56,810 nucleotides of DNA from a virus (IMGVR_UViG_3300013093_000003:1-56810); one strand, 5' to 3'. Counted from the stretch's first letter, positions 5,181-38,959 are shown. Notes: a model not told the origin generated them from the letters alone. Numbers and translations: made by a program.

Positions 5181-5529
5181 TTGCCCGGTAATGTCGCATA
5201 ACGGCCCCTGCTATTTATGCGACACATTCGGCATTAAAACACACGACAAAGACACACCGCCCGGCGTCCCACCCAGCGTATACCGTAAAGACACAGCGCC
5301 AGCGACGCGGCCCAGCCTGCTAGGGCGCCAGCGGCCCCGCCGGGGCGGATTCGGGCCGGAAAACCGCGTTTTCCAAACCGTTTTGGGCTTTCGGGATTTA
5401 TTTTAAAGTGCCCCACTGCCAAATGCCCCCAGAAAAAATGCCAAATAATATAATTTTTTCAAACACTTAACCGAAACACGTCACCACCTACTCGAACGCC
5501 GCAACAACCGCCGCATAACCGCCGCATAG

Positions 5530-5572
5530 ATACAGCCTGTATTAAGCAACGCCTTAACGATACAACTTGTAT
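5530..5572. promoter_or_regulatory. Two palindromic operator-like sites (ATACAGCCTGTAT, ATACAACTTGTAT)
   Basis: Starts 30 bp apart, upstream of the 5655 gene; same family as the 1349 site. Confidence 0.55.
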
Positions 5573-5654
5573 AAAAATTGCCGCTCAACCCGCCTGTTTC
5601 CCCTTAAATCGAACCGTGCTATGGTGCCTCCAGTCTTAACCACCGGAAACCACC

Positions 5655-8600
5655 ATGCGCTTTATCAAACCGATGATGGCCATAGCAGCGGCCTTAACGC
5701 TGTTCACCCAGCCCCTTCAGGCGCAATCCACGCGGTCGGCTCTGACGACTGTCAACAACGCCGAGTTTAAGTCGTGCGGCAACGGCTGTATTACCGGGCC
5801 GATGGTGAACAGCTTCAATGCCCAGATGCTCGCCAGCACAGGGTTTCTGGCCGATACGAACAACTGGACAGGAACCAACAACTTTCTTGGGCCAATCAGT
5901 TTCGCCACGCTTGGTCTGACAGGGGTTATTAGCTCGGCCTCTCCGACGGGGGCGCTGTCTTACGGGATACTGCCGTATAGTGACGTGAACATTTTTGCGT
6001 CGTTCAATTCGAACGTGAACAGTTATGCGCAGCAGGTCGTTTCCAACTCGAACGCTGGAACGTCGGCGTCGGCGGATTACATTGTCAGCAACAACTTGGG
6101 CACAGCGTCGTCCTATTTTGGCGACTTCGGAATAAACAGCTCCGGGTTCGTTGGTGTCGGCAGCTTGAACTTGCCGAACGCAACGTTCTTGGCCGCGACG
6201 TCTGGCGACTTGTCTTTGGGGACGACCGGTGCAAACGCGGTGCACATAGTGGCCAATGGTTCGGCCACAGATGCGATCACGGTCACGTCGGGGAACGCGG
6301 TCGCGCTTCCGCAACTGACCGGATACGTTTATGCGAACGGGTCGTCGGCTGCGACGGCATCCAGCAACATTCCAGTTGCGGCGTTAAACGGCGGTAGTGG
6401 CGCAAGTTCTACGACATTTTGGCGCGGCGACGGGACATGGGCGACGCCCGCTGGGGGTGGTGGCGGAACGCCGGGCGGCAGTTCGGGTCAGATTCAGTAT
6501 AACAACGCCGGAGCGTTCGGAGGATTTACGGCATCCGGCGATGCGACGATTGTCGCCAGCACCGGTGCGGTGACGCTCTCGACCGTCAACAGCAACGTCG
6601 GTTCGTTCGGGTCTGCAACGGCAGCGCCGACCTTCACGGTCAACGGTAAGGGTTTGTTGACGGCGGCGGGGTCGGTTACGATTGCTCCGCCGTTCTCGGC
6701 TGTGACAGGCCAAACGACTTTGGCGCAGCTTCCGTCGCTTGCCACGAATACGATTTTGGGCAACGGGACGGCTTCGACTGCAACACCGACCGCGCTTGCG
6801 ATTCCGTCGTGCTCGACAGCTTCGAGCGCTTTGACGTGGACGACCAGCACGGGCTTCGGGTGTAACTCGATTTCGGGCGGCGGTAGCGGCACGGTCAACA
6901 GCGGCACGATTGGTCAACTTGCCTACTACGCGTCTACCGGAACGGCGGTAAGCGGCGAGACAACGCTTGCGGCCTCGCAAATGCCTGCGTTGACTGGTGA
7001 TGTGACCAACACGGCTGGGTCTTTGGCGACAACGGTTGGTTCAATCGGCGGTAAAGCGGTGTCGCTGGGCGGCTCGTTTACGACGTCCGGCGCGTTCAAT
7101 ACGACTTTGACAACGACGGGCACAACGACGCTGACGCTGCCGACGTCCGGTACTGTGACGGCGCTGGGCAATACGGTTACGGGCATAGGCTCGATTGTTC
7201 TAAATTCAGGAGCAACTCTTGCGGGGCCGCTTCTGACCAACGCGTCGGCTTCAGGGTTTTTCTCTGCGCCGGGCCTCATAACAACGACCGATCTTGCTTC
7301 GCAAAACGCCAATACTATTTTAGGCAACGGAACGGCTTCGGCTGCAACACCAACCGCATTGGCGGTGCCCTCGTGCGCTGGTGCAACCAATGCTTTGATC
7401 TGGACGAGCGGAACCGGATTCGGGTGCAACACGATCACAGGCAGCGGTTCGGGAACAGTCAGCAGTGGCACAGCGGGGCAGCTTGCCTATTACGCTTCAT
7501 CGGGCACTGTTGTTAGCGGCGAAACAACGCTGGTAGCTTCGCAGATGCCGGCACTGACCGGCGACGTGACCAACACGGCTGGGTCTTTGGCAACAACGGT
7601 CGGTTCGATCGGCGGTAAAGCGGTGTCTCTGGGCGGGAACCTGACGACTTCGGGTGCGTTCAACACAACTTTGACCACAACGGGCACCACCTCGTTAACA
7701 TTGCCGACGTCCGGCACTGTGACGGCGCTGGGCAATACGGTTACGGGTTCGGGCTCGATCGTATTGGCCACGTCTCCGACTTTGACGTCGCCCACGGAAT
7801 CGGGAACGACGGTGACAGGGTCGTTTACAGCAACGGGTCTGGTGACACTGGCCGACCAAGCAACGCAAGCGGCTAACACGGTTACGGGTAACGGAACAGG
7901 GTCAACTGCGTCTCCGACTGCGCTTGCGGTTCCAAGCTGCTCGACGGGCACCAGCGCGTTGACGTGGACAAGCGGAACGGGTTTCGGGTGTAACTCTATC
8001 ACGGGCGGTTCAAGCACCGTCACGAGCGTTCGTCAGTCTGTGCAAAGCGGGCCGGGCGGCGGAACGCCAACCTTCTTACCCGCAACATCGGCGTCTTTGG
8101 CCATTACGTCGCAGAACATATCGACGGGTGCTAACTCGTTTGTCGTTTCATCTGCGGGCGGGTTTGGGTCTTCGGGTAACGTAGATAACGTAGGCGTCAG
8201 CACAGCCAACCTAACGTGGTCAAGCTTAACAGCGTCCACCACAGACTTTTTGGGCGTGACAGTATCGGGCGGCGCGCTGACGACATTAAGCACGGCGTTA
8301 GTGCCAATTTACCAATACGGCGGGACAATCTCGGTCACGTCGGGTCAATACACGTTTGATATTTCGCAAATGAAAATGTTCTTGGGCAACGGCTCAACAG
8401 CATCTGCGGTCAACGTGGTGTTCGTGGGTGAAGCTGTAACAAGCGGGTCTGCGGTTACAAGCACGGTCGCTTATCAGTATCTCGGCTATTACGACAGCGG
8501 GTATATTGCAACACTCCCCGCCGTTTCAACATCTGTAAGCAAGAACTCTAATCTAGGAATAGCCGCGCACAATATAACACTGCACGTAAAAAACATAACA

Positions 8601-8816
8601 ACAGAAGGCGGTTTTTCGGTCGGTGATGAAATTGTCCCTTTCACATATACCGCTCCATACGTGGCGCCGTTTTCTCCTGCTTCGAGCAGGAATACTAGCC
8701 AGTTTACAACAGCATCTTCAAATTCTTTTGCGGCGTTGACTAAGACAAGCGGAGCGTTTTTTGCTTTAACAGCCGCAAATTGGTCTTACCGCGTAATCGC
8801 AACAAGGGGTTGGTAA
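5655..8816 (+). CDS. Long G/S/T-rich fibre/adhesin-like protein (1053 aa) with predicted signal peptide and internal repeats
   Basis: GGSSGQIQYNNAGAFGG and LTGDVT fibre-type motifs, repeated modules, followed by a chaperone-like gene; N-terminus MRFIKPMMAIAAALTLFTQPLQA. Confidence 0.75.
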   Translation: MRFIKPMMAIAAALTLFTQPLQAQSTRSALTTVNNAEFKSCGNGCITGPMVNSFNAQMLASTGFLADTNNWTGTNNFLGPISFATLGLTGVISSASPTGALSYGILPYSDVNIFASFNSNVNSYAQQVVSNSNAGTSASADYIVSNNLGTASSYFGDFGINSSGFVGVGSLNLPNATFLAATSGDLSLGTTGANAVHIVANGSATDAITVTSGNAVALPQLTGYVYANGSSAATASSNIPVAALNGGSGASSTTFWRGDGTWATPAGGGGGTPGGSSGQIQYNNAGAFGGFTASGDATIVASTGAVTLSTVNSNVGSFGSATAAPTFTVNGKGLLTAAGSVTIAPPFSAVTGQTTLAQLPSLATNTILGNGTASTATPTALAIPSCSTASSALTWTTSTGFGCNSISGGGSGTVNSGTIGQLAYYASTGTAVSGETTLAASQMPALTGDVTNTAGSLATTVGSIGGKAVSLGGSFTTSGAFNTTLTTTGTTTLTLPTSGTVTALGNTVTGIGSIVLNSGATLAGPLLTNASASGFFSAPGLITTTDLASQNANTILGNGTASAATPTALAVPSCAGATNALIWTSGTGFGCNTITGSGSGTVSSGTAGQLAYYASSGTVVSGETTLVASQMPALTGDVTNTAGSLATTVGSIGGKAVSLGGNLTTSGAFNTTLTTTGTTSLTLPTSGTVTALGNTVTGSGSIVLATSPTLTSPTESGTTVTGSFTATGLVTLADQATQAANTVTGNGTGSTASPTALAVPSCSTGTSALTWTSGTGFGCNSITGGSSTVTSVRQSVQSGPGGGTPTFLPATSASLAITSQNISTGANSFVVSSAGGFGSSGNVDNVGVSTANLTWSSLTASTTDFLGVTVSGGALTTLSTALVPIYQYGGTISVTSGQYTFDISQMKMFLGNGSTASAVNVVFVGEAVTSGSAVTSTVAYQYLGYYDSGYIATLPAVSTSVSKNSNLGIAAHNITLHVKNITTEGGFSVGDEIVPFTYTAPYVAPFSPASSRNTSQFTTASSNSFAALTKTSGAFFALTAANWSYRVIATRGW

Positions 8817-8817
8817 C

Positions 8818-9216
8818 ATGATCTATTTTCTCAACACGCAAGACGGTTCTATCTATCAGGGTGATTGCCGAGTTGGCGACCGGCAGGCAACAGACGCCGA
8901 AGTGGCGGCGTGGCAAGCCGCGCACGCCGCACCGGTAAACTTCGTGCAGGTCAATTCAACCAGCACGCCCGCACTTAATTCGACGTATTTGTATGACACG
9001 GCGCATATTCAGGACATGATGGCGACGAGCCTTTACATTCAGGTCAACGGGAAATTCCCCGCAGGCCAAGCCGCTTTTCCTTGGTATGATTCCAACGGCG
9101 CCGTGCGGATGTTCACATCGCCTGCCCAGTTCCAGACTTTCGCAAGCGCAATGGCGGATTACGTGGCGATGTTGAATATAGGTCAGACGCCAACGGAGCC
9201 GATTACAATTTCGTAA
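8818..9216 (+). CDS. Putative fibre assembly/chaperone protein (DUF4376-like), paralog of 34599-35048
   Basis: Directly follows the fibre; shares VQVNS.STPALN, SLY.QVNGKFPA.Q..FPWYD and QFQ.FASA.ADY with the paralog. Confidence 0.7.
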   Translation: MIYFLNTQDGSIYQGDCRVGDRQATDAEVAAWQAAHAAPVNFVQVNSTSTPALNSTYLYDTAHIQDMMATSLYIQVNGKFPAGQAAFPWYDSNGAVRMFTSPAQFQTFASAMADYVAMLNIGQTPTEPITIS

Positions 9217-9255: not shown

Positions 9256-9456
9256 GGGGCTTGTGGGGTTGAAAGCCCCGACGGATTGCCAAAGCCAAGA
9301 CCCGATTGCGTGGAGAGGCTGCGGCGTAAGGGGAAGAACAACTCGGCAGTCTGCGCAAGCAGCAACGGAGCTTCCCCTTTTTGTTTCGATGCGCGTTCCT
9401 CCCCGCGCATCGTCCTTGCGGGGTTCCGAGCTACGACGGAACCCCGCCTTTTATTT
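9256..9456 (+). ncRNA. Candidate structured RNA or leader
   Basis: Four GC-rich stems between a promoter and a terminator-like hairpin; no convincing ORF. Confidence 0.35.
9418..9456 (+). terminator. Intrinsic terminator
   Basis: GCGGGGTTCCG/CGGAACCCCGC stem followed by CTTTTATTT. Confidence 0.7.
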
Positions 9457-10415: not shown

Positions 10416-10675
10416 ACTTCACGATGGAAGATTTTATCATTTTCTTACCGTTGACTCTGGTCAACGGGGTTCCGCTGATGATGCGCGCCGATGACCTGTC
10501 CGGTAAGACGCTCTACGCGTGGAGCGACGATGAGTTTACAGCATGGCGGGCCGAGCGCCTTCAGGCGATGAAGGGCAAGTTTGCACCGTCCGAAGACCAG
10601 CCCGAACCGCAGTTCGAGATAAATCCTGTTGTGGAAAAGCCCGCAACGTTCCGCAGCAAAATGGGGCTTGAATAA
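10412..10675 (+). CDS. Hypothetical protein directly upstream of TerL
   Basis: ATG 10412; stop overlaps the TerL start (TAATG). Confidence 0.6.
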   Translation: MNFTMEDFIIFLPLTLVNGVPLMMRADDLSGKTLYAWSDDEFTAWRAERLQAMKGKFAPSEDQPEPQFEINPVVEKPATFRSKMGLE

Positions 10676-12561
10676 TGGCCGTGTCCTCGAACAAATGGCT
10701 GAAGCTGTTTGAAACTTTCATCGGTGACATTCGTATCAAGTCAAAAGAGTCCAACACACAGGACGAACGCGGCTCGCCGCTCATTCTTTGGGAAAGCCAA
10801 CGCCGGTTTATTCAGGAAGTCGGTTCGGGGCTCGATAACGGCATTCACTCGTTCAACTGTTTAAAGTCTCGCCAGCTCGGTGTTACCACCGTGTCTCTGG
10901 CGATTGACGTGTTCTGGTTGGCCATGCACCCGAATATCATCGGTTGTCTGGTGACGGATACGGAAAAGAACAGTCTGGCCAACCGAAGCCTGATCGAGCA
11001 CTATGTCAAATCGTTTCCTGAAAATTATTTCGGTGACGCGTTCAAGATCGTAACGTCGAACCGGAAACAGATTGTTTTCTCCAATGGCGCGCGGCTTGAT
11101 CTCTTGGTTGCGGGCACCAAGAACAAGGGCACGTCTTGGGGTGAGGGTATCGGTTACACGTTCGCACATCTGACCGAGACCGCCGCTTACGGCAGCGTGG
11201 ACGGTCTGAAGTCTTTGGAAGAAGGGTTTGCGCAGGAAAACCCCAGCCGCTTATTCATTTACGAATCCACGGCTAAGGGGTTCAACCATTGGCGCACCCG
11301 CTGGGTTGACGGGCTGAACGCCACGCTGACCCAGCGTTCGTTCTTCGTGGGCTGGTGGGCAGGCGATACCAACATTCTGCGCCGCAGCGACCCGCGATTC
11401 AGCGCTTACTCTTACCCGCCCGCACCAGATGAACGCGACCTGATTGCGACGGTTGCACGCCTCTACGGGCACAAGATCACCGCAGAGCAGCTCGCATGGA
11501 TACGCTGGAAAGGCCAGAACGCCGGAGCCGAGCAAGACTTGCTTGAGCAGAACCAGCCGTGGACGCACGACCAAGCGTTCGTTATGACGGGTTATTCGTT
11601 CTTTCAAACGCGCATGGTCACACAGGACACCAAGCGCATTCTGGAAAGCGGCATGGTCTACAAGGGCTATCGCTACGAAGTGGACGGAGATTTCTTCAAC
11701 TTCAAAATGATTGAACTTGACCCAGACCGCGACGACATTTCGCAAGTTGAATTGAAAGTCTGGGAAGAACCGGTAGAGGGCGCGCAATACGTCATCGGGT
11801 TCGACCCAGCCTACGGCAGAAACGACCATAAAGATGGCCATGCAATAATTATTTTTCGGTGCTTTGCCGACAAGCTCGTGCAAGTGGCCGAGTATGTGAC
11901 CGCAGATGTGGAAACAAAGCACGCGACTTGGGTTCTGTTTCATCTGTCAGCGGCTTATCGCAACTGCATGGTCAACGTCGAACTCGGCGGGCCGGGGCAG
12001 ATGATTATGCCTGAATTTGACCATCTGCGCCAGCTTCTTGCCGTCGAAATGAACGCCGGTAAGACAGCGGCAAAGGGGTGGGAAGACGCAGCCGGTCAGG
12101 CGCGTTGGTATCTATACCACCGCCCCGATTCGTTCGGTGCCGGATATATGGCCAACTTCGAGACGAACTGGCGCACCAAGCAAATGATTATGCACCAGTT
12201 GCGCGGCACCTACGTTAGCAACGAGCTTGAGATAAGATCGGTTGCGTTGCTGCGCGAGATGAGCATCGTTGTTGTTAATGACGGCGAAATCGGCGCACCA
12301 GAGTCACGCGACCCGAACGCCAAAGACGACCGCGTGTTTGCAATGGCGCTCGCTACTCGCGCATGGCTGGACTGGATTCGCAAAGACATGCTGGCGCAAG
12401 GCATGACTTATGAATCCGTCATGGAAAAAGAAGCCGGCAACGCAACAGAAATCAGCACCGTCGTAAACTCTATCGTGTTCAACTTTCTTCGGTCTCAGGA
12501 AGAAATGGAGCGCGACGAAGAACCGACAACTCCGCGCTGGATGTCTGACCAAGGTCTATAA
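10675..12561 (+). CDS. terL: Terminase large subunit
   Basis: LKSRQLGVTT Walker A, HLTE Walker B, ESTAKG coupling motif, YVIGFDPAYG and DDRVFA nuclease motifs. Confidence 0.93.
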   Translation: MAVSSNKWLKLFETFIGDIRIKSKESNTQDERGSPLILWESQRRFIQEVGSGLDNGIHSFNCLKSRQLGVTTVSLAIDVFWLAMHPNIIGCLVTDTEKNSLANRSLIEHYVKSFPENYFGDAFKIVTSNRKQIVFSNGARLDLLVAGTKNKGTSWGEGIGYTFAHLTETAAYGSVDGLKSLEEGFAQENPSRLFIYESTAKGFNHWRTRWVDGLNATLTQRSFFVGWWAGDTNILRRSDPRFSAYSYPPAPDERDLIATVARLYGHKITAEQLAWIRWKGQNAGAEQDLLEQNQPWTHDQAFVMTGYSFFQTRMVTQDTKRILESGMVYKGYRYEVDGDFFNFKMIELDPDRDDISQVELKVWEEPVEGAQYVIGFDPAYGRNDHKDGHAIIIFRCFADKLVQVAEYVTADVETKHATWVLFHLSAAYRNCMVNVELGGPGQMIMPEFDHLRQLLAVEMNAGKTAAKGWEDAAGQARWYLYHRPDSFGAGYMANFETNWRTKQMIMHQLRGTYVSNELEIRSVALLREMSIVVVNDGEIGAPESRDPNAKDDRVFAMALATRAWLDWIRKDMLAQGMTYESVMEKEAGNATEISTVVNSIVFNFLRSQEEMERDEEPTTPRWMSDQGL

Positions 12562-13738: not shown

Positions 13739-15523
13739 CTACTTTTTGCCGGGGTGTTGGTGGGCTTTGAGTTTCATTTCTTCCGCGTGTCGAACCGCTT
13801 CGGCCTTTGCAATTTCGCGGCGCGTAATACCCGCTTGCAACTCGTCCGGGTCGGTCACGTCTACGTGTTCGACCAATTCCGAAGCCGACATTGCGCCGAC
13901 CTTCAGCAAATCGAAAGCCAAGTTCTTTGCTTCGTTCGAGAATGCAGGCGATGACGAATGCGAATCGACGGTCAAGATTACATCGTCCGGCAAGTCCGCG
14001 AACTGAAAGAATACAGGCACCATGCCGGGGGCTGGGGGTATCAACAGTTCCAGTTCGGCCTTTGGTGTTACGAACTCCATCCCCGCCGCTTTCTCCGGAA
14101 CCCAAGCGATAAGCTTCCGGTCAACGTGAGCGCGCGCCAAATCCAGCGTCAAAGCGCCGAAGCTTTCGACCGCCCGTTCAACCAGCAGGGCGCGATCTTT
14201 AAAGCGCGGCGAAAACATTCGAATGAGCGTTTCCGCATGATTGCCCGACCGGACACCCGCATCGCCTTGGCCCTTTGCAATCGGCGGCAAGCCCATCATT
14301 TCATCGAACATGCGCTCATACTCGTGCAACGACGCCCAAATGTCTTGAGGGATGTTGGTTATGTCGCGTTCGACCTTGGCATTCGGGTTTGAATCCGAAT
14401 AGTATCCGCCCGGCTTATTCAGACGGCTTAACACGGTCTGGTTTACGCCGTTCGAACCCATGAACTTCGTTGCGGGTTCTTCCTGCTTGCGCAACATTTT
14501 GTTCGTCCCGACGATGCGGGAATTGATAGCTTCTTGCAGCATAATCAACTGCGCCACTTCCGACTTACCCCAGAAATAATTCGGCACAGGGTTTGAGCAG
14601 AACGTGTTGAACGGGTGCACACCCTTCAACGGCGGCGAGCTGACGCGCGTGTTCGGGTCATAGGCCAGAGCGTTTATAATAGAATAGCGCCCCAGCAACA
14701 GAATGTCGTCTCCGATCAACTGGAATGTCGCCCAGTCGTCGCGCTCGTCATCCCAAATCCAGACTTCCATAAGCTCCATCATCTGCTGCTCGACTTGCGG
14801 CGAGACAGACGGCTTTGGTTGGCTCATCCAGTCCACAACGCCGCGCGTCACAGAACCGCCCGCGCCGCCAGCTTGCAACGGATACATGCCGCCTACGACG
14901 ATATTCATGGCAGAACCGGACGTGCCGGTAAGGCCACCCGCCGATTCTTTCATGTAGCGTCGGCCTTTCTTGCGCAGCTCGGCTTCGTCGGGCGAGTTGG
15001 CAATCAGCCGGTCAAACTGATGTTTCGTAATCATCATGGAGTGGCAGAACCCCTCCATGTCTTTATCAAGCTTTGTGTGGTTCTCGCGCATAACGCCGAA
15101 ATCTTCCGGCTCGATGAGATGAACCGAAAATTCTTTATCTTTGAACATCTGCTTGGTGATGCCAAGACCTTTGACCAAGCTACATCCGACCGCTTGCGAA
15201 ATCAAAGAGTCCGCGTCCGCCTGTCGGCAATACTGCCGGATGCGGGACGCCGCCGCACGACCCTTGGCCTCGTTTATGATGTTCGGCACGTCTGGGTCGC
15301 CAATGTGAAACCGCAAGGCCACAGGCGAAAACAACAAGGATTCCAGATCGTCCAGAGACGAAAAGGTCTTGTTGAACATGGCCGGAGTCCCCGCGTCCCC
15401 CGAACCAATTGTGGCGTAGCTGTTGAAAAACACGCCCCTGTTTGTCCGGTCGGTGCGTGATGACATGCACTGGTCAGCGATCTCTCGCACGAATTTAGTC
15501 AGTTCTCGTCTGGGTATTCTCAC
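13739..15523 (-). CDS. Portal (head-tail connector) protein
   Basis: 594 aa between TerL and scaffold/capsid; HPF....PVPNYFWGKSEV..LI.LQEAIN resembles podovirus portals. Confidence 0.75.
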   Translation of the reverse strand: MRIPRRELTKFVREIADQCMSSRTDRTNRGVFFNSYATIGSGDAGTPAMFNKTFSSLDDLESLLFSPVALRFHIGDPDVPNIINEAKGRAAASRIRQYCRQADADSLISQAVGCSLVKGLGITKQMFKDKEFSVHLIEPEDFGVMRENHTKLDKDMEGFCHSMMITKHQFDRLIANSPDEAELRKKGRRYMKESAGGLTGTSGSAMNIVVGGMYPLQAGGAGGSVTRGVVDWMSQPKPSVSPQVEQQMMELMEVWIWDDERDDWATFQLIGDDILLLGRYSIINALAYDPNTRVSSPPLKGVHPFNTFCSNPVPNYFWGKSEVAQLIMLQEAINSRIVGTNKMLRKQEEPATKFMGSNGVNQTVLSRLNKPGGYYSDSNPNAKVERDITNIPQDIWASLHEYERMFDEMMGLPPIAKGQGDAGVRSGNHAETLIRMFSPRFKDRALLVERAVESFGALTLDLARAHVDRKLIAWVPEKAAGMEFVTPKAELELLIPPAPGMVPVFFQFADLPDDVILTVDSHSSSPAFSNEAKNLAFDLLKVGAMSASELVEHVDVTDPDELQAGITRREIAKAEAVRHAEEMKLKAHQHPGKK

Positions 15524-17883: not shown

Positions 17884-18954
17884 ATGGCATACCCAACATC
17901 ACCTGTTGGCACCTTGACCGGATCGGGCATTACGCCCTCTGGGGCGTTAGGAGCCCAACTTGCAGCCATCACACGCCGGGCTTTTTTGCCAAGCGTCTAC
18001 GTCCAAGTTTACCAGTCACACCCATTATTGAGCCTGTTTATGGCCAATGCGAAGGCCGCTCGCGGCGGTGTATCGCAGATTACCGTTCCGGTTCAGGGTT
18101 CTTCTTTCGTCTCCTTCAACTGGGGCAGCTTTGCGGGTGACTTCCCGATGCCGCAAGATCAGGCGGCAATCCAGAACGCCCAGTTCTCCTTGAAGCTCGG
18201 CATGGTGCCAATCGGATTCTTCGGCATGGAAGCAATCTTGCAGTCCTCCGAAGTTGTTATCCCCAAGCTGCGCGCCGTCATGTCTGACGCTGCCGTGGTC
18301 ATCAAGCAGGCTTACGCGCAGTCGCTCTACAGCAACAACTACGCAAACCCGCAGATGTGGGATTCTTTGACGCAGGCTTACGACGACGGCACCAACGTCC
18401 CGTCCTACGGCGGCATTGCTCGTAATCCCGGTTCGTTCTGGTCTGGCCAGCTTATCAACAACACCGGCGCAGCGGCGACAACCCGCGTTGGCATGGCGCA
18501 GCTTCTCACCCGCATTCAGGCTGGTGCAGGCGGCGAAGCTCCGGACTACGCTGTCATGAACCCTGCCAACTGGGCGGAACTGATGACCGACTTTATGTCG
18601 CTCGAAATGTTCACCACGAAGCCTCGTTCGATCTACGAAAAAGAAGATGCGGTCAATGCGGGCTTCCGCGCTATCCGCGTTCTCGATACTCCGATCTTCC
18701 CAGACCCCTTCTGCCCACTCGGAACCTGCATCGTCGTAAACAGCCGCTACACCGGCCTGTATATGTCGGAATACGCGCCTATGACCTTCTCCGGCTTTGA
18801 AAGCCAGATCGCGGTAGGCCAGATTTCAGACATTGGCGTGCTCATCTCCGCAGCCGATCTGGTTTGCGCGAAGCCTTCATCCGGTGCTCAGATCACCAAC
18901 ATCACTGGCGCCGCATGGCCCAACGTTCCGGGCACCTCGCCCGCCGTTCTTTAA
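17884..18954 (+). CDS. Major capsid protein
   Basis: 356 aa, AAGGAG RBS, strongly biased codons, position after scaffold, TPIFPDPFCP motif. Confidence 0.8.
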   Translation: MAYPTSPVGTLTGSGITPSGALGAQLAAITRRAFLPSVYVQVYQSHPLLSLFMANAKAARGGVSQITVPVQGSSFVSFNWGSFAGDFPMPQDQAAIQNAQFSLKLGMVPIGFFGMEAILQSSEVVIPKLRAVMSDAAVVIKQAYAQSLYSNNYANPQMWDSLTQAYDDGTNVPSYGGIARNPGSFWSGQLINNTGAAATTRVGMAQLLTRIQAGAGGEAPDYAVMNPANWAELMTDFMSLEMFTTKPRSIYEKEDAVNAGFRAIRVLDTPIFPDPFCPLGTCIVVNSRYTGLYMSEYAPMTFSGFESQIAVGQISDIGVLISAADLVCAKPSSGAQITNITGAAWPNVPGTSPAVL

Positions 18955-24333: not shown

Positions 24334-24792
24334 ATGACGAAATTCAGTGTCGAGCCTTACACAAAGGCCATCGCGGATGCAAAGACAATGCTTATGGAGC
24401 ATTGGCAAGAACTTGCCGTCCATAAAGACATTCCCTTAGACCCCGATTTCGGGTTCTACGAAACAGCGGAGCGTATCGGCATCTTGACCGTTATCACGGC
24501 GCGAGACGACGCGACGAACGCTCTGATTGGCTACGCCGCTTTCATTGTAAGGCCGGGGCATATTCATTATAAGCGCCACAAATGGGCGATCAATGATATT
24601 GTCTGGGTGCACCCGAAACATCGAAATGCTGGCGTGGGCAAGTCTTTTGTTACATACTGGGATAACGAACTGAAAAACGCCGGTGTCGATGTGGTTCACA
24701 TCGGCACCAAAACGTCCAATCCGGCTCTGGCTTTCCTCCTTGGGGCTTGTGGCTACGCCAAGACTGGCGAAAACTACGAAAAGAGGCTCTGA
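24334..24792 (+). CDS. GNAT-family acetyltransferase
   Basis: VWVHPKHRNAGVG acetyl-CoA-binding motif A. Confidence 0.8.
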   Translation: MTKFSVEPYTKAIADAKTMLMEHWQELAVHKDIPLDPDFGFYETAERIGILTVITARDDATNALIGYAAFIVRPGHIHYKRHKWAINDIVWVHPKHRNAGVGKSFVTYWDNELKNAGVDVVHIGTKTSNPALAFLLGACGYAKTGENYEKRL

Positions 24793-25913
24793 TGGGTATC
24801 GAAGCAGCAATCGCCGCAATCGGCAGCGAACTGTCCGCTGGTGCGGCTGGTGTCGGGTCAGCATTGACCGCTGGTGCGGCTGACGTTGGGTCGGCTCTTG
24901 GGTTGAGCGGGGCTGCGGCGGGTGCTGATGCAGCCGCAGCAGGGACGGGTCTTGGCGTTGCCAGCGGCGGCGTGGACGCAGCAGGGGCTTTGACGGCAAC
25001 GGGTGCAGCCGACGCCGCAGCGGGTTTGGGCGCTTCGGCGCTTGGGGCTGATGCGCTCGGCACAGGCGCGAGCGCAGCGGGAACCGCCGCTGGCACCTTG
25101 GGGGCTACAGCCGCTCCCGCCGCTTCGGCTTTGACGGGCGGCGCAGCCACAGGCGCGACTTCAGCTTTGACAGGGGCGGCGGGTTCTGCGGCAGCGGGCG
25201 TTGCTCCAGCCGCAGCGTCGGCAGGCGGCGCGGCAGCAGGTGACATTGCGGGGTCTCTTGCGGGTGTCGATGCAGCAGGCGGCGCGGGTGCAGCCGCTCT
25301 CCCGACAGCGGGAACACTGGGGGCTTCGGGCGCTCCGTTGGCCTTGGCTGGCGCATCTGGTGTTCCTGCCGCTACGGTTCCTGCGGCGACGAGCTTAGGT
25401 TCGCAACTTAGCAGCCTCGGCGCGGATTTAATGACTCCTAAAATGCTTTTATCAGGTGCAGGTCTTGCCGCTAGCGCATTGTCAGGAAGTAAAAAACCCG
25501 CCGATTACGCGCAACTTCAGGCTTTAGCCGCGCAAGATCAGGCGCAAGGCACGCAATTACAAAGCTATTTGACTTCAGGCACTTTGCCGCCCGGCGTATC
25601 CGCAGGCTTACAATCCGCACATGACAGCGCTGCCGCAACAATTCGTTCGCAATATGCGTCTCGCGGGCAGAGCGGGTCAAGCGCCGAGGCACAAGACTTG
25701 GCAAACTTGGCCAGCACAACGGTTTCGCAAGGCGCAAACATTGCGTCAAATCTGTTGTCGCAAGGCATTCAGGAAAGCAATCTGGCGAGTGGCATCTACG
25801 AGAATTTGATGAAGACGTCTATATCGCAAGACGAAGCTCTATCCAACTCTATTGCAGGGTTTGCGGGCGCACTTGCGGGACAACCCGCAAAGACCCCGAC
25901 AACTTCCGCGTAA
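24792..25913 (+). CDS. Putative DNA ejection/pilot protein (Ala/Gly-rich)
   Basis: Ala/Gly-rich N-terminal half, ASRGQSGSS motif, TGATG coupling to the GNAT gene. Confidence 0.65.
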   Translation: MGIEAAIAAIGSELSAGAAGVGSALTAGAADVGSALGLSGAAAGADAAAAGTGLGVASGGVDAAGALTATGAADAAAGLGASALGADALGTGASAAGTAAGTLGATAAPAASALTGGAATGATSALTGAAGSAAAGVAPAAASAGGAAAGDIAGSLAGVDAAGGAGAAALPTAGTLGASGAPLALAGASGVPAATVPAATSLGSQLSSLGADLMTPKMLLSGAGLAASALSGSKKPADYAQLQALAAQDQAQGTQLQSYLTSGTLPPGVSAGLQSAHDSAAATIRSQYASRGQSGSSAEAQDLANLASTTVSQGANIASNLLSQGIQESNLASGIYENLMKTSISQDEALSNSIAGFAGALAGQPAKTPTTSA

Positions 25914-25925
25914 GGCAGAAACACA

Positions 25926-31398: not shown

Positions 31399-31594
31399 TA
31401 CCGTCGTTACGGCTTTTGCCGGTCTCGGTTACGCGCTTTCTGCGCGCGCACTTTTGCTGCTGGCGTTGATCGGTTCGTTCGTTTTGGCCGTCATGGCCAT
31501 GATGAGTCAGACACCCGCCGCGCTTGAAGTGCTCGTCGCTTACGCTTTCCTCACCGTGATTCCGGTGGCCTTTCTCGAAGTCAGGAAACGCTAA
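31343..31594 (+). CDS. Small protein with two or three TM helices
   Basis: Long hydrophobic stretches; stop overlaps the next start. Confidence 0.6.
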   Translation: MPETIQIQEVTSRQSTPLDTVVTAFAGLGYALSARALLLLALIGSFVLAVMAMMSQTPAALEVLVAYAFLTVIPVAFLEVRKR

Positions 31595-32226
31595 TGGCCT
31601 CGCTCGTCGGTTTCCGCGAACAAAGAGTTCTTATCCCAAGCTACCGCGCGGACGGGGTTATCGCCTCGGCTACCGCGCCGCAGCTTATTTTGCCGAGCGC
31701 TGCGCCGCGCTCGTCCGTTCTTTTGCAGAACACGTCCACATCGAATATGTGGATTGAGTTCGGGTCGGGCCGCGCGAAGGCCACTATCTCGAACGGCGTC
31801 GTCACCAGCATCGCTGTAACGAACGCAGGGTTCGGCTTCTCTTACGCGCCGCGTATTATTCTTCTTGGCGGCAGCAACCACCAGAACGGCTTGAACCTCG
31901 GCCTCGGCTTGCCGGGGCAGGAAGCGCCGTCGAATATCGCAACTGCGGTTTGCGTTATGACCGGAACCGCGCCGAATATGTCGATTGCCTCGATCACCGT
32001 TACGAACGGCGGGTCTGGCTACTCGGCTGCGCCTTACGTGCAGATTTTGAACGACCCCAACGATTCATACGGCGCGGCAAACCCGTATAATGCGGGTGCA
32101 GGCGTAGGTTTCGAGCTATATCCCGGCCAGTCTCTTTATGAAGCGCATTCAATTGTTTGCACCGATGCGATTGCGGTTTTCTGCGCCACGGTCAGCGCAA
32201 CTTATTTCTGCCGATACACCGTTTGA
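31594..32226 (+). CDS. Structural protein with TNxGxG(Y/F) repeats
   Basis: VTNAGFGF and VTNGGSGY repeats. Confidence 0.65.
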   Translation: MASLVGFREQRVLIPSYRADGVIASATAPQLILPSAAPRSSVLLQNTSTSNMWIEFGSGRAKATISNGVVTSIAVTNAGFGFSYAPRIILLGGSNHQNGLNLGLGLPGQEAPSNIATAVCVMTGTAPNMSIASITVTNGGSGYSAAPYVQILNDPNDSYGAANPYNAGAGVGFELYPGQSLYEAHSIVCTDAIAVFCATVSATYFCRYTV

Positions 32227-33267: not shown

Positions 33268-34596
33268 ATGGCCGCACCTACCCTAAGCACGTTTTATCAA
33301 GGGCAAGGCTCGGTCAATGCCGACATGCTCAACACGTTTCAACAGTCTTGCGATAACTACGCCCAGCTTCGCGCTTTCACAGGCATAGCAGGGCTTCAGG
33401 TCTATGCACGCGGCACAACTGCGGCAGGTGATGGTGGCCAAGGTACGTTCTACTGGAACGCCACGTCTGCAGCGACCGACAACAACTCGACCGTGATTGT
33501 GCCGACCGGTTCAGTTCTAGGGGCGTGGATTCTGCTCCCCGCTTCTGTCAACGCCCCCGCAGGAACTTTGACCGGAACGACGCTTGCGGCAAACGTCGTC
33601 AATTCGTCTCTCATCAACCAGACTGCCAACTATGCGACTGGCTCGGTCACATTGGCCAAGCTGGACGAAACAGGCTTGGCGGGCTATGTGCTGACGGCAG
33701 AAGGCCCCGGCAATGCGCCGCAATGGCAGCCTGTCGGCGGCGCAAACTCTGGCATGACAGGATTCCGTAACCGTATCATCAACGGCGGTATGAATATCGA
33801 CCAGCGCAACGCAGGCGCTTCGCAAACCTTTACGGCTGGCGCGGCTCTGGCATACTCGGTTGACCGGTTCTACGGCTATTGCACAGGCGCGAACGTAACA
33901 GGCCAACGCACGGCGAATGTGGGCGCTTCGGGGTCTCCTTCTCAATACGTTTACCAATTCACAGGCGCTTCGTCTGTGACAGGTATCGGCTTTGCCCAGC
34001 GCATAGAGGCTGTAGACTGCTTTGATTTAGCGGGCAGCTCCGCCACTTTATCCGTAAGTTTGGCCAACAGCCTGTTGACAACGGTGTTGTGGTCGGCGTC
34101 TTACGCCAACACGACCGACACGTTCGGCACTTTGGCGAGCCCGACCAAGACTCAGTTTGCTACGGGTTCCTTTACCGTGTCCTCTACGCAAACGCGGTAC
34201 TCGATCACTGTGTCGGTTCCGTCCGCCGGAACAACAGGTATCGAGATATTGTTCTCTGTCGGCGCACAAGTCAGCGGAACGTGGCAGATTGGTAACGTCC
34301 AATTTGAATTGGGCACTTCTGCAACTTCATTCGAGCGTCGTCCGGTTCCGACCGAACTTCAAATGGCGCAACGCTATTATGCCAATTTTGGGCCAAACTA
34401 CTACGCGCTTCACGTAGTGAACGACGCGGGAACGATACGTAACGGCTCCTTTATGTGGCCTGTTCCGATGCGCACCGTGCCAACTGTTGTTTTCGGCGCA
34501 ACGCCGTCAGCTTCGTCTATCGACGCCTTGGGGGTTTACTACCAAACCAATCAAAGTGTGGCGTGCCAAGTCAACACCATTACAGCGGAGCTTTGA
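33268..34596 (+). CDS. Tail fibre/receptor-binding protein
   Basis: GDGGQGTFYW N-terminal motif; FRNRIINGGMNIDQR and VQFELG..ATSFERRP...ELQMAQRYY fibre motifs. Confidence 0.8.
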   Translation: MAAPTLSTFYQGQGSVNADMLNTFQQSCDNYAQLRAFTGIAGLQVYARGTTAAGDGGQGTFYWNATSAATDNNSTVIVPTGSVLGAWILLPASVNAPAGTLTGTTLAANVVNSSLINQTANYATGSVTLAKLDETGLAGYVLTAEGPGNAPQWQPVGGANSGMTGFRNRIINGGMNIDQRNAGASQTFTAGAALAYSVDRFYGYCTGANVTGQRTANVGASGSPSQYVYQFTGASSVTGIGFAQRIEAVDCFDLAGSSATLSVSLANSLLTTVLWSASYANTTDTFGTLASPTKTQFATGSFTVSSTQTRYSITVSVPSAGTTGIEILFSVGAQVSGTWQIGNVQFELGTSATSFERRPVPTELQMAQRYYANFGPNYYALHVVNDAGTIRNGSFMWPVPMRTVPTVVFGATPSASSIDALGVYYQTNQSVACQVNTITAEL

Positions 34597-34598
34597 TA

Positions 34599-35048
34599 GT
34601 GACTATTTCTGCGCAATGGGCTAACGCATCTCAAACCAGCGTCGTCGTTACCGACTCAAGCACGAATATCACAAGCCACGTTCCAGCCGATACAGCTAAC
34701 ACAGACTATCAACAGTTGTTGGCCACTCTGGTTCCGATTGCGAGTTACGCAGCGCCGTCTGTCACTCCTACAACGGTGCAAGTCAACTCTATTAGCACGC
34801 CCGCACTCAACGGAGCTTATTCGTTTGATTCAACCGCACAAGCGAAGCTCATGGCGGTTTCCCTTTACGTGCAGGTCAACGGGAAATTTCCAGCCAACCA
34901 AACAAGTTTCCCTTGGTATGATGCAACCGGCACGCCGCATCTGTTTACCACGACAACACAGTTTCAGGCTTTCGCCAGCGCGATCGCGGACTACGACACC
35001 AACCTTTCTTTGGGGCTCGCAACCGCAGCTCCGATCACCATTCCGTAA
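34599..35048 (+). CDS. Fibre assembly/chaperone protein, paralog of 8818-9216
   Basis: GTG start after GGAG; VPADTANTDYQ motif; C-terminal domain shared with the paralog. Confidence 0.7.
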   Translation: MTISAQWANASQTSVVVTDSSTNITSHVPADTANTDYQQLLATLVPIASYAAPSVTPTTVQVNSISTPALNGAYSFDSTAQAKLMAVSLYVQVNGKFPANQTSFPWYDATGTPHLFTTTTQFQAFASAIADYDTNLSLGLATAAPITIP

Positions 35049-35408: not shown

Positions 35409-36026
35409 ATGATTTACCCGACCGTTGCCGATATTCTCTCCGTCTGCCCGAAAGCCAACAAGGCCATCGTAGCGGGCATTGTCTCGTCGTTGCCGACGGT
35501 TGGCGCGGCGGGTGGCCTTACCAGCATTGCGCGGGTCGCGCATTTCCTGGGGCAGGCTGGCGTAGAAACCGACCATTTCCTCACCTATGAAGAATACGCA
35601 TCGGGTGCGGCTTACGAAGGACGCCACGATCTCGGCAACACTCATGCCGGCGACGGTCGCCGGTTTAAAGGGCGTGGCGCTTTTGATCTGACAGGTCGTG
35701 CCAATTACGCGGCCGCGACGACATGGGTTGCTAATCTCATGAATCGGCCTTCGCTTGATCTGGTCGCCACACCTGAAATTGTCTCGGCTGATAAGGCTGT
35801 CGGGCTGGCAACATCGCTCTGGTTCTGGAAGAACCGCAAGCTGAACGTCTTTGCAGATACGGGCGTGAACGACACGTCCATAGAGCACATTACGCACGTC
35901 ATAAACGGCGGCTACAACGGGCTGCACGAACGCGCCCGCCTCACCTACGCCTTCTATAAGGTTCTGGTGAACCGCCAAGCCCACGCTGTCGTAATGGCCA
36001 GCAAATACGTTAACCGGAGTCATTAA
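35409..36026 (+). CDS. Endolysin, glycoside hydrolase family 19
   Basis: AHFLGQAGVET, YEGRHDLGNT..GDG.RFKGRG...LTGRANY, INGGYNG. Confidence 0.9.
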   Translation: MIYPTVADILSVCPKANKAIVAGIVSSLPTVGAAGGLTSIARVAHFLGQAGVETDHFLTYEEYASGAAYEGRHDLGNTHAGDGRRFKGRGAFDLTGRANYAAATTWVANLMNRPSLDLVATPEIVSADKAVGLATSLWFWKNRKLNVFADTGVNDTSIEHITHVINGGYNGLHERARLTYAFYKVLVNRQAHAVVMASKYVNRSH

Positions 36027-36027
36027 G

Positions 36028-36348
36028 ATGAACGATCTAACCCCAGTCTCTAAGCCCGCCTTCGCGTCTACGACGGTGTGGAACTCTATCGCTGTTATTG
36101 GCGCCGCGGCAACCGCCGCTTATTCCGCATGGAAAACAGGCGACACCGCCATGTTCGGAGCCGCTATCGTTGGCGTTATCGGCGGCGTGAACTCGATCGT
36201 TGGCCGTTTCAAGGCGCAAGGCCCGCTGTCGGGCTGGATGGCCACGGCTGCGGACGTCATTCAGGAAGCTGACACCTTAGCACCCATCCTTGTCAGCAAT
36301 CTTGCGCCACCCGTTCCGGCAAGCGCACCTTTGCCTGAATCACACTGA
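36028..36348 (+). CDS. Putative holin
   Basis: Two TM helices; directly after the endolysin. Confidence 0.55.
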   Translation: MNDLTPVSKPAFASTTVWNSIAVIGAAATAAYSAWKTGDTAMFGAAIVGVIGGVNSIVGRFKAQGPLSGWMATAADVIQEADTLAPILVSNLAPPVPASAPLPESH

Positions 36349-36959
36349 TGCTGCGGCACGCCTCTCTCGCGCTTCTAGCGCAACAGTCCTATTCAGGCCC
36401 GCAAACCTTACAGGTCGCGGGAGACGTGCGCGCCGACATAACGGAGTATACGACGGAAGTCGTAGTGGCGTGCCCCGGCACTCACCCGTCTGACTTGCAA
36501 GACTGGATTCGAGACGTTCGCGCATTCCCGTCTTATTTCAAGAAACTCGGTTTCTGCCATTCGGGCTTCGGGTCGGGCGGTATAGACCTTTGGTCTAAGC
36601 TGAAAGGCCAACTACCAAAAGACAAGCTTGTCACTTACACGGGGCATTCTCTGGGCGGCGCTTTAGCGCAGGTTCTCGCGGCACTGCACGTTGCCGAAAT
36701 GAAACAGACCTGCCGCGTCGTAACGTTCGGTGCGCCGCGCGTCCCGTTTATGCTGAACCGTTCTTTCAAAAAACGCGCCAAAATGTTGACGGACAGCGTG
36801 GGCTACCAACGGTCGGGCGACCCAGTTCCCGAAATGCCGACGTGGCCTTTCTACTACCACCCGATAAAAACGCAAAAAATCGGCGTTCGTGTGTTCGACC
36901 CAATTGAGAACCATTCCATTTCCCGCTATGCTGCTGACTTAGCGGCACTCAACCTTTAG
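36348..36959 (+). CDS. Lipase class 3 (alpha/beta hydrolase)
   Basis: PGT oxyanion region, HSGF, TGHSLGGA nucleophile elbow, TFGAPR, DPVP, H(S)I..Y. Confidence 0.9.
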   Translation: MLRHASLALLAQQSYSGPQTLQVAGDVRADITEYTTEVVVACPGTHPSDLQDWIRDVRAFPSYFKKLGFCHSGFGSGGIDLWSKLKGQLPKDKLVTYTGHSLGGALAQVLAALHVAEMKQTCRVVTFGAPRVPFMLNRSFKKRAKMLTDSVGYQRSGDPVPEMPTWPFYYHPIKTQKIGVRVFDPIENHSISRYAADLAALNL

Positions 36960-36967
36960 GAAAACCC

Positions 36968-37330
36968 ATGAATCGTTTTGCTCCTGCTTTCATCCTTCTA
37001 GGCGCTTTGTGCTCTGGTTGCTCGACTTCGGCTGTGACCCAGTTCGGCACCAATGCTGCTGCGGTCGCCGTGTCAATCAACACCGTGAACAACTCGATCA
37101 TTCAGTTGAACACAACCATCATCAACAACACAGCCCAGCTCGCTGCAGCTTTGGCCAAAGTTGAATGCCCTATCATCAACGCTTCGGTGTCTTTGGGTAA
37201 GGCGATTGCCGCTGACCCGAACGTCTCCGCAAGTGTGAAGGCCAAGCTCAACAAGGCTGGCCCAGCAGGCGCTTTGGTGTCTGATGTTTGCGCCGCTGCT
37301 GGCTTCGGCCCTACCGCCGCTGTGAACTAA
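36968..37330 (+). CDS. Putative lipoprotein
   Basis: Signal peptide with lipobox-like CSGC; two further Cys. Confidence 0.6.
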   Translation: MNRFAPAFILLGALCSGCSTSAVTQFGTNAAAVAVSINTVNNSIIQLNTTIINNTAQLAAALAKVECPIINASVSLGKAIAADPNVSASVKAKLNKAGPAGALVSDVCAAAGFGPTAAVN

Positions 37331-37677
37331 TGGCTCCGCTGATCGTCGCTCTTGTCGGGCTGTTCACGGGTGCGGGAGCAGGCGCTTACGCCTTTCCCGC
37401 GCTGACGGGTGCTGCCAAGACTGAAGCGGTTATCGCGGGCCTCTACGCCGACTTGCCGACGATTTGCGCGGCAACCCAGCCCGTTATTGACCAGCTTGCT
37501 TTAGCTGCGCCTCGGTCAAAAGCACTGGTCAAACTCTCTTACGCGTCGGATGCTGTTTGCGCCGCCGCCAAAAGACCCGACAACCCCATCGACCAAGCCC
37601 GACTCATCATTGACTTGGTTCAAGCAATACACGCCGCGAACGTTAAGATTGCGGCGTCCCAACCTGTAAAGAAGTAA
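37330..37677 (+). CDS. Membrane-anchored protein, possibly lysis-associated
   Basis: N-terminal TM helix; two Cys; TAATG coupling. Confidence 0.55.
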   Translation: MAPLIVALVGLFTGAGAGAYAFPALTGAAKTEAVIAGLYADLPTICAATQPVIDQLALAAPRSKALVKLSYASDAVCAAAKRPDNPIDQARLIIDLVQAIHAANVKIAASQPVKK

Positions 37678-37679
37678 GA

Positions 37680-37943
37680 ATGCCGAATTTCACTTTTGAC
37701 GGTTCCATCAACGCTGGCCAAATTCTCACAGGTCTTATTTTTCTTTTCGGCTGCGGCGTCGTCTGGGGCACAACAAGTCGTCGGCTGAAAGAAGTTCAGA
37801 AAGACGTAAGCGGGGTGCAGGAAGAAATAAAAAAGCTTACCGAGATTACTATTTCAAACGCGGCTCGTGACGAGCGCGAGAAAGCTTTGGCTGCACGCCT
37901 TGACCGCTTGGAGCGTCAATTAGAAATAATGCAGAATAAATAA
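37680..37943 (+). CDS. TM plus coiled-coil protein
   Basis: One TM helix followed by heptad repeats. Confidence 0.6.
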   Translation: MPNFTFDGSINAGQILTGLIFLFGCGVVWGTTSRRLKEVQKDVSGVQEEIKKLTEITISNAARDEREKALAARLDRLERQLEIMQNK

Positions 37944-38647: not shown

Positions 38648-38959
38648 ATGACGACGCAAGAGCTGATAGCTATTCTTAAAACCCAAGATCAAAACGCGAC
38701 TGTGGTTTTGTCGGCAAAAGATTTGTATTTTAGGGACGATCATTTTTACACGGTAAACACTGTCACGGTTGAGTTAGCCGCGAAGTGCTCTAAGAATTTC
38801 TACGCAATAGCTGGAAGCCGTGACGACGTAGCAGACGCTCGACACTACTTGGCTGACGGGAAAGAAATTCTTGCAGATCAAGTCGTGGTTTTGTCGATGG
38901 TTCAAGAAGATTTCGACCCTGAAAATTTAACGCTCGTAAAATCGGTGTTATCGTTTTGA
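38648..38959 (+). CDS. Hypothetical protein
   Basis: MTTQELIAIL...D..A.V N-terminus common in phage small proteins. Confidence 0.6.
   Translation: MTTQELIAILKTQDQNATVVLSAKDLYFRDDHFYTVNTVTVELAAKCSKNFYAIAGSRDDVADARHYLADGKEILADQVVVLSMVQEDFDPENLTLVKSVLSF

Follow-up and report, generated by a model that had tools for sequence, protein, structure and literature searches.

The window analysed here is the whole 56,810-base record of the virus IMGVR_UViG_3300013093_000003, which carries terminal repeats, was rated 100% complete and belongs to a tailed phage. Two of its genes encode fibre-type proteins, of 1053 and 308 amino acids (aa), that begin with apparent Sec signal peptides (Table 1). The leader of the 1053-aa protein contains R2 and K5, L at position -3 and A at -1, and a signal peptidase I site was predicted between A23 and Q24. 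The 308-aa leader comprises R2 and R6, the h-region AILLFAACLV and likewise L at -3 and A at -1. Judged by these features, which can be read directly from the translations, both leaders have the make-up of Sec/signal peptidase I signal peptides, with a charged n-region, a hydrophobic h-region and small or aliphatic residues at -3 and -1. Eight cysteines are present in the 1053-aa protein: 41 and 45 (CGNGC) and a PSC-x16-GFGC pair in each of three 188-aa shaft repeats (C386/C403, C574/C591 and C762/C779). Those of the 308-aa protein are at 14, 39, 55, 282 and 296; the first is inside the leader and the mature protein holds two pairs, C39/C55 and C282/C296. Translation and cysteine positions bore out the first-pass annotation, which had described a leader, CGNGC and three PSC...GFGC pairs in the longer protein and a leader followed by QQ, with Cys pairs, in the shorter one. 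No lipobox was found in the 1053-aa leader, which is free of cysteine. In the 308-aa leader, Cys14 comes after only seven uncharged residues following R6, a context that we take to fail the PROSITE-type lipobox rule.

The 5655 start is not preceded by a clear Shine-Dalgarno sequence. In-frame ATG codons ahead of residue 24 are limited to M1, M7 and M8, all before the hydrophobic core. Because these candidate starts precede the core and residues 24-98 are conserved, a start downstream of the leader, which had been named beforehand as a finding that would speak against export, is excluded for the 1053-aa protein as far as its sequence can tell. The 308-aa gene has a GAGGG ribosome-binding site 4 nt upstream of its start at 32234. 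A longer in-frame open reading frame (ORF) that begins at 32138 overlaps the preceding gene and is without a ribosome-binding site.

Leaders were called where the best 10-residue Kyte-Doolittle mean starting by residue 15 was at least 2.0, with K or R before this segment and no D or E inside it. The rule flagged 7 of 274 six-frame ORFs of at least 60 aa in the window. Among 72 non-overlapping ORFs it flagged four, or five with the proper start for the 308-aa gene. The other three are envelope proteins, two of them from the lysis cassette (36968-37330 and 37288-37677) and one from the minus strand (50500-50871), which sets the two fibre-type proteins apart.

A search of 1.84 billion representative proteins with the mature N-terminal module (residues 24-98) returned 58 relatives. 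The module starts at residue 19-37 in 52 of them, at residue 3 in one, internally in two and at residue 50-65 in three, which look like over-long gene calls. The leader rule was passed by 47 of the 58, and most of the remainder have an evident leader with an extended start or without charge. Conservation of the cut site was observed across the family. Within a 42-sequence alignment, -1 was Ala in 39 sequences, -3 was A, V, L, G, C or S in 41 and +1 was Gln in 38, a pattern that equals the small-x-small motif of signal peptidase I. The consensus of the module is Q-x-T-R-x-x-L..NN..[C/N]G-x-G-[C/A]-ITG..D-T-N-x-W-T-G-x-N-x-F. A structural model of residues 1-240 comprised a leader helix (4-16), a helix (27-37), a turn with C41 and C45 and a further helix (48-62); model confidence was about 90 for residues 31-60 and low beyond about 62-65. 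Between the window protein and its close relative P0002, the leader was identical in 23/23 residues, the next 77 aa in 64 (83%) and the next 135 aa in 90 (67%), and the C-terminal half of P0002 was unrelated. P0001 and P0002 have the first ~235 aa in common and differ beyond, which amounts to tip swapping between close relatives. P0002 and P0121 are independent gene calls on other contigs and showed the same leaders. A second, classic tailspike-type N-terminal module (LLPNGxQQFxDxNGxPLAGGxVYxYxPGT) was also found behind a leader (L224 224-1783, P0137, P0147, P0149 and P0164), so the leader has apparently been put before more than one kind of fibre N-terminus.

The cysteines of the N-terminal module are coupled, with C41 and C45 both present in 19 and both absent in 23 of the 42 aligned sequences and a single one in none. 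Cysteine content was compared among the 120 best homologs of the whole 1053-aa protein, 31 with and 89 without a leader. The median number of cysteines after residue 30 was 8 with a leader and 1 without (Mann-Whitney p 2.5e-11). At least two cysteines were present in 29/31 versus 37/89 proteins (Fisher p 1.7e-7), and among those having any, the count was even in 25 of 30 versus 24 of 64. The C..GFGC pair occurred in 10/31 leader-bearing and 2/89 leaderless homologs (Fisher p 1.7e-5); P0096, one of the two exceptions, has an evident leader lacking charge. The closest leaderless fibres (P0003, P0007, P0027, P0042 and the fibre of the related phage G001) contain no cysteine in 1031-1558 aa. Since the cut motif is conserved, C41 and C45 are coupled and cysteines are enriched in leader-bearing homologs, the view that both proteins are exported, disulfide-folded fibre-type proteins is well supported at the level of sequence. 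The first-pass proposal holds to this extent. Its further choice, between appendages added at lysis and adhesins or decoys, is weighed below.

Table 1. Coordinates of the two leader-bearing fibre-type genes, their parts and other features in the window.
Feature	Position	Strand	Remarks
Fibre-type ORF, 1053 aa	5655-8816	+	Starts MRFIKPMMAIAAALTLFTQPLQA, then QSTR
Predicted leader, aa 1-23	5655..5723	+	n-region MRFIK, h-region PMMAIAAALTLF, c-region TQPLQA
Mature N-terminal module, aa 24-98	5724..5948	+	Helix, turn, helix (model); Cys41/Cys45 flank turn
Fibre shaft, aa 99-784	5949..8006	+	Generic fibre modules and three 188-aa repeats
C-terminal tip, aa 785-1053	8007..8816	+	All-beta, cysteine-free, two subdomains
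132-aa partner, DUF4376-type domain	8818..9216	+	No leader; PF14301, E 1.2e-4, 22.9 bits, cut-off 25
Non-coding stretch upstream of 1053-aa gene	5400..5654	+	About 250 bases; motif ATACAACTTGTAT at 5560-5572
Terminator-like hairpin	9418..9447	+	11-bp stem, 9 G-C pairs, T-rich tail
Fibre-type ORF, 308 aa	32234-33160	+	Starts MRLTFRAILLFAACLVPPPLMA, then QQGG; embedded in tail operon
Predicted leader of 308-aa protein, aa 1-22	32234-32299	+	Predicted cut between A22 and Q23
Large terminase	10675-12561
Major head protein	17884-18954
Three large internal-protein-like genes	24747-31064		Last with transglycosylase
210-aa Ig-like virion-type protein	31594..32226	+	G001 homolog directly 5' of G001 leaderless fibre
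442-aa leaderless tail fibre (phrog_4492)	33268..34596	+	N-terminal ~90 aa match separate 136-aa G001 protein
149-aa DUF4376-type paralog, partner of 442-aa fibre	34599..35048	+	GTG start; no leader; 24.6 bits, cut-off 25
Lysis cassette	35409..37943	+
GH19 endolysin	35409-36026	+
Lysis-cassette membrane protein	36028-36348	+
Class-3 lipase/esterase	36348-36959	+	Between membrane protein and lipoprotein
Spanin-like lipoprotein	36968-37330	+	Lysis cassette
Lysis-cassette membrane protein	37288-37677	+
Membrane plus coiled-coil protein	37680-37943	+	Lysis cassette

Homology searches indicated that both proteins share modules with fibres encoded in phage tail operons. Modules of the 1053-aa shaft recurred in 660 proteins at E <= 0.001 (among 8000 scored candidates), many of them classic fibres that include Peptidase_S74, Pectate_lyase_3 or collagen domains. 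For the tip, 36 homologs were found, 24 of them leaderless with classic fibre or tailspike N-termini and 12 with leaders. Its model consisted of two beta domains with a predicted local distance difference test score (pLDDT) > 90. The first is reminiscent of shoulder domains found in phage receptor-binding proteins (RBPs), and the second is modelled as an immunoglobulin (Ig)-like sandwich. Foldseek searches with the tip model gave no match at E <= 0.001. An exhaustive alignment with VIA-align ranked RBP shoulder domains among the top matches. Scores were Z 8.5 for 3h6j (Pseudomonas neuraminidase-like), 8.4 for Mtd of a Bordetella phage (1yu0), 7.9 for the RBP of lactococcal phage p2 (2wzp), 7.2 for the HFTV1 fibre and 6.8 for the RBP of phage 1358, a Z range that is common by chance according to the tool. 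In the 308-aa protein, the central module SGANSVVLRDSNQNI is common to leaderless classic fibres beginning MALVLANRVQE, and the C-terminal knob is also present in P0127, another leader-bearing protein. Pfam and PHROGs contained no family for either protein. PDB sequence searches gave no match at E <= 1, and a search of the ESM Atlas returned only weak viral neighbours named 'hypothetical protein'.

The gene of the 132-aa partner starts 1 nt past the stop codon of the 1053-aa gene. This partner and the 149-aa paralog were 52% identical over 108 residues. DUF4376 proteins of the Alteromonas phages V22 (gp27) and A5 (gp9) are tail-fibre chaperones according to the consulted parts of PMC7289586 and PMC10579305. 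Like the window partners, they are encoded directly downstream of a fibre gene and have a C-terminal DUF4376 domain. They differ in that the same parts of these papers report no leader on the V22 and A5 fibres, and the window partners match the family under the Pfam cut-off (22.9 and 24.6 versus 25 bits).

The uncultured phage G001 is a relative with a large terminase ~70% identical to that of the window. Its genes follow the order internal proteins, membrane protein, 136-aa protein, 204-aa protein and a leaderless, cysteine-free 1031-aa fibre. The 136-aa protein corresponds to the N-terminal ~90 aa of the 442-aa window fibre and the 204-aa protein to the window gene 31594-32226. The 1031-aa fibre (L191 843-3938, minus strand) thus occupies the position of the 308-aa leader-bearing gene, directly after the 204/210-aa gene in the tail operon. 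It shares an N-terminal helical module and generic shaft modules with the 1053-aa protein, but has neither leader nor cysteine, whereas the window proteins have Sec-type leaders and four or two cysteine pairs. Its first residues MSTSETRSQLLAQINSQIIANGTGAITGPVLNN showed 36% identity over 53 aa to the mature 1053-aa N-terminus (pairwise E 2e-7), and the alignment places T3 of the mature protein opposite T6 of the leaderless fibre. Owing to this match, leader cleavage would yield nearly the N-terminus of the normal fibre of a related phage.

The hairpin at 9418-9447 closes a two-gene unit of the 1053-aa fibre and the 132-aa partner. Upstream, a simple scan of 5400..5654 detected no sigma-70-like promoter. 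The 13-base motif ATACAACTTGTAT or close variants of it occurred at 1092, 1361 (minus strand), 5560, 37959 and 38592, all non-coding; the other four copies are near early and replication genes and none is ahead of structural genes. The repeated motif may be a phage promoter or operator. The locus of the 1053-aa gene, upstream of the terminase, varies among relatives. At 22 related loci with terminases 60-70% identical, it harboured unrelated accessory genes, among them those of DnaJ-like proteins and serine recombinases, and three of these loci hold < 500 bases at this place. Small serine recombinase genes (MxYGYARVS...) were seen there in L089, L090, L094 and L103. A fibre gene was present at this locus only in the 96% relative. 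Moron-like features are limited to the 1053-aa gene, with the terminator-like hairpin and the variable locus, yet no sigma-70-like promoter and only the repeated motif.

The same design was encountered in other phages. Patterns for the N-terminal module were built from a 6-sequence alignment, an 11-sequence version being too divergent. The scan detected eight viral loci from a different small podovirus-like group (G005). Four of the eight were examined; in each, a leader-bearing fibre of 440-517 aa (MRRLLALLALLTLATPAAAQSTRAALTS...) separates the portal region from an endolysin, after which spanin-like genes follow. In genome contigs, the 6-sequence alignment provided one usable pattern and no confirmed match. 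A further search used a DNA pattern for DTNxWTGxNxF that detects 19 of 57 family members. It had four matches in the viral collection, two of them true loci, and 19 in the genomes of 185,579 species, of which one was true; the viral collection is much smaller than the bacterial one. The near absence of true loci from bacterial reference genomes, compared with the viral loci, suggests that the module is mainly phage-borne, with small counts on both sides. Of 71 IMG/VR ORFs homologous to the first 270 residues, seven carried leaders, often several consecutive ones behind head or baseplate genes. On one IMG/VR contig (L016 6512-12179), three consecutive leader-bearing genes, encoding 1374 aa (20 cysteines), 265 aa and 247 aa, were located between the tail-terminator and tail-assembly-chaperone genes of a siphovirus-like module, where the major tail protein is expected. 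Leaders were also present on at least 24 of 65 proteins that carry the widespread FWRGDGTW module in bacterial genome contigs, and exported fibre-like proteins therefore exist in bacteria too.

When the whole 1053-aa protein was searched against cultured phages, only one shaft repeat matched, in one 47,902-bp genome. This genome was deposited twice with an identical match, as Shewanella phage vB_Sb_QDWS (OK094664.1) and as 'Hujiaoplasma phage zrk29-1' (OP650936.1). The cultured vB_Sb_QDWS encodes a 687-aa ORF (L226 5866-7929) that starts MIKKILLTALLVPAMALA, then QTYP..., and has a PSC..GFAC pair and a tailspike-like C-terminal part. It is located 3' of a leaderless tail fibre and 5' of an O-acyltransferase and an endolysin. 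The vB_Sb_QDWS record annotates only the last 418 codons of this ORF (from codon 270), plus an antisense ORF over the 5' part. The cultured podovirus phi18:3, a Cellulophaga phage (NC_021794, Pachyviridae), also has Sec-type leaders on tail-type proteins, with Gln as the predicted +1 residue. Its gp085, gp086 and gp087 start with MKNKITIIMILMSISFGYSQ before V, MKKTIYILSILLLTISGVSAQ before T and MKHTFSIVLFFILSIGLNAQ before T, and all pass the leader rule, as did none of nine other structural proteins annotated by mass spectrometry (MS). According to the record annotation, gp085-gp087 are virion structural or tail proteins 'based on experimental MS/MS proteomics analysis'. Their genes are separated from the remaining structural genes and immediately precede those of membrane proteins and the endolysin. 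They differ from the window proteins in having 0, 1 and 3 cysteines after residue 30 and in the Bacteroidota host of the phage. Leader-bearing fibre genes thus adjoin lysis genes in phi18:3 and in 4/4 G005 loci examined, and are close to them in the window.

Our preferred reading, held tentatively, is that the two proteins may well be accessory fibres, matured in the periplasm and docked on the particle when the cell lyses. It is preferred because the N-terminus matches that of the G001 fibre, the partner gene is of fibre type, lysis genes are near and the phi18:3 proteins are annotated as virion components. The Sec pathway of a two-membrane host would export both chains unfolded, and signal peptidase I would cut after LQA23 in the 1053-aa or LMA22 in the 308-aa protein, exposing an N-terminal glutamine. 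In the periplasm, the chains would fold, presumably as trimers, and local pairs would be oxidised: C41-C45, C386-C403, C574-C591 and C762-C779 in the 1053-aa and C39-C55 and C282-C296 in the 308-aa protein. Head and short tail would meanwhile be assembled in the cytoplasm. Once holin, endolysin and spanin-like proteins rupture the envelope, periplasmic fibres could encounter the particles, and the N-terminal helical module might dock them as extra receptor-binding fibres alongside the leaderless 442-aa fibre. The leader features, the conserved cut site, the coupled cysteines and the homology to fibres are observed, whereas export, cleavage, disulfide bonding and trimerisation are inferred, and docking is the step that we infer most remotely. 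With still more reserve, it is possible that some tailed phages use a two-compartment assembly, a widespread route in which Sec-exported, signal-peptidase-I-trimmed and disulfide-stapled fibres join at lysis and infectivity depends on host secretion and oxidative folding.

Several observations weigh against docking at lysis. We know of no described route by which a periplasmic fibre joins a particle built in the cytoplasm. Rerouting of tail fibres through the periplasm has not been described for tailed phages, and our literature searches found no description of tail fibres with secretion signals. The leaderless DUF4376-type partner cannot assist folding in the periplasm, and its lack of a leader is hard to reconcile with an unfolded chain being exported by Sec. 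The leaderless 442-aa fibre could serve alone. The 1053-aa gene with its own terminator resembles an accessory 'moron', and none of the 22 related loci had a fibre-like or leader-bearing plus-strand ORF of at least 120 aa upstream of the terminase. The leader calls rest on a home-made rule and on family conservation. The phi18:3 proteins have no detectable sequence similarity to the window proteins; their MS/MS detection is taken from the record annotation and can stem from co-purifying material.

Some of these points lead to a different fate after export. The proteins would not be part of the virion and would act on the envelope of the infected cell, by receptor masking, superinfection exclusion or protection of progeny against debris, or as an adhesin. 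The self-contained unit of the 1053-aa gene and its partner, with the terminator-like hairpin and with unrelated accessory genes at the locus in relatives, would fit this role, as would the upstream motif that recurs by early and replication genes and not by structural genes. A leaderless fibre, accompanied by a chaperone-type partner of its own, is already present in the phage, and in vB_Sb_QDWS the 687-aa leader-bearing ORF lies beyond a leaderless fibre and adjoins an O-acyltransferase gene. Exported fibres on the surface of a two-membrane cell are found in the mosaic adhesive trimer (MAT) fibres of Bdellovibrio bacteriovorus, as far as the consulted part of PMC10769870 describes them, and leaders on FWRGDGTW proteins are common in bacterial genome contigs (the at least 24 of 65 noted above). 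The missing lipobox and the lack of Pfam or PHROGs matches, on the other hand, leave no sign of passage through or anchoring in the outer membrane. Bacterial reference genomes hardly contain the N-terminal module, the mature N-terminus recurs on the G001 fibre, which sits at the tail-fibre locus, and the leader-bearing tail proteins of phi18:3 are annotated as virion proteins. We regard a non-virion role as somewhat less likely than docking at lysis, though a serious competitor of it. More specific versions were discarded. An exported decoy copy of the virion fibre tip is unsupported because the 1053-aa tip and the 442-aa fibre have no sequence similarity, a lipoprotein receptor blocker lacks its lipobox, and lysogenic conversion is unsupported since no integrase or repressor was recognised among the window genes. 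A polymorphic toxin was rejected in view of the RBP-like tip, the DUF4376-type neighbour and the absence of a Pfam toxin family. The gene lies in a complete virus record and is thus not the chromosomal gene of a fibre-displaying bacterium, as which MAT genes are known.

Export could also be dispensed with. To our knowledge, all tailed-phage assembly takes place in the cytoplasm, and the N-terminus might remain uncleaved, either tethering the fibre to the inner membrane or being buried. The fibre would then fold with its DUF4376-type partner in the cytoplasm and be assembled as usual. The leaderless partner gene, translationally coupled 1 nt past the fibre stop codon, agrees with this, as does the characterisation of DUF4376 proteins as cytoplasmic fibre chaperones in the consulted parts of the V22 and A5 papers. 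A tether would have no need of the conserved small-x-small motif followed by Gln, and it fails to explain the even-numbered, coupled cysteines tied to leader-bearing homologs, which makes it improbable. The least probable explanation by far is an annotation artefact, with true starts elsewhere and untranslated leaders. The weak ribosome-binding context of the 5655 start and the frame of the 308-aa gene, open upstream to 32138, would allow for it. Against this, the N-terminal module at residue 24 requires an earlier start, every candidate start includes the hydrophobic core, the independent calls P0002 and P0121 give the same leaders and the 32234 start has its GAGGG site.

Among known systems, MAT fibres come close to the layout of the window proteins, with a signal peptide, a conserved N-domain, a phage-like trimeric fibre of ~1000 aa and a swappable tip (PMC10769870, part consulted). 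They differ in being chromosomal and displayed on the predator's own surface. As described in the same part of that paper, the MAT N-domain is beta-rich and comprises ~130 aa, whereas the N-terminal module of the window protein was modelled as two helices; the two were compared by description. Sec-dependent polymorphic toxins likewise combine a signal peptide and tail-fibre repeats in one protein, but have a C-terminal toxin domain and an immunity gene where the window has an RBP-like beta tip and a chaperone-like neighbour (PMC3482391, part consulted). The nearest report in the literature searches concerns leader-bearing proteins of Porphyromonas phages that obey the Q-rule of Bacteroidetes; in the consulted part of PMC10367356 their function is unassigned and they are read as outer-membrane modifiers.

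If fibres do mature in the periplasm, they would form a class of exceptions to the textbook completion of tailed-phage particles in the cytoplasm. For both infectivity and host range, the phage would rely on the Sec, signal peptidase and Dsb systems of the host, and disulfide stapling of fibres could account for how stable soil and water phages are. Leader-bearing fibre genes would be systematically mis-annotated, as in the vB_Sb_QDWS record, which misses the leader-bearing start, and engineering of such RBPs would need periplasmic expression. If the proteins are not part of the virion, they would represent a new type of phage-encoded envelope modifier assembled from fibre parts. Under either reading, the design recurs across several unrelated phage lineages and phi18:3 offers a cultured test system.

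A single Prim-Pol/AAA_25 primase-helicase gene was split over the ends of the record (55610-56809 and 3-1187), which implies a circular or circularly permuted genome with an arbitrary 'left end'. Cultured relatives are very distant, the nearest terminase being 31-35% identical. Ig-rich virion proteins were among the recognisable genes, and the replication module comprised a helicase, a DUF2800 exonuclease, a methylase and a family A polymerase. The gene set of the lysis region, with membrane proteins, a class-3 lipase and a lipoprotein, indicates a host with an outer membrane. The FWRGDGTW fibre module was found in every phylum and a tip homolog in a Labrys genome contig was without leader; both are uninformative on the host. 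The class-3 lipase (36348-36959) may target the outer membrane during lysis. A DPBB-domain lipoprotein (RlpA-like lytic transglycosylase; 50500-50871, minus strand) is a further exported phage protein outside the lysis cassette. The sole portal-like match, SU10_portal with E 4.8e-4 and below the cut-off, was a 594-aa ORF on the minus strand (13739-15523), which sits within the plus-strand structural block. An HNH-AP2 endonuclease gene was located at 44593-45108. The helicase gene (38956-41364) showed a LAGLIDADG-type match at residues 250-310, between the two helicase halves, which might represent an intein or an inserted homing endonuclease.

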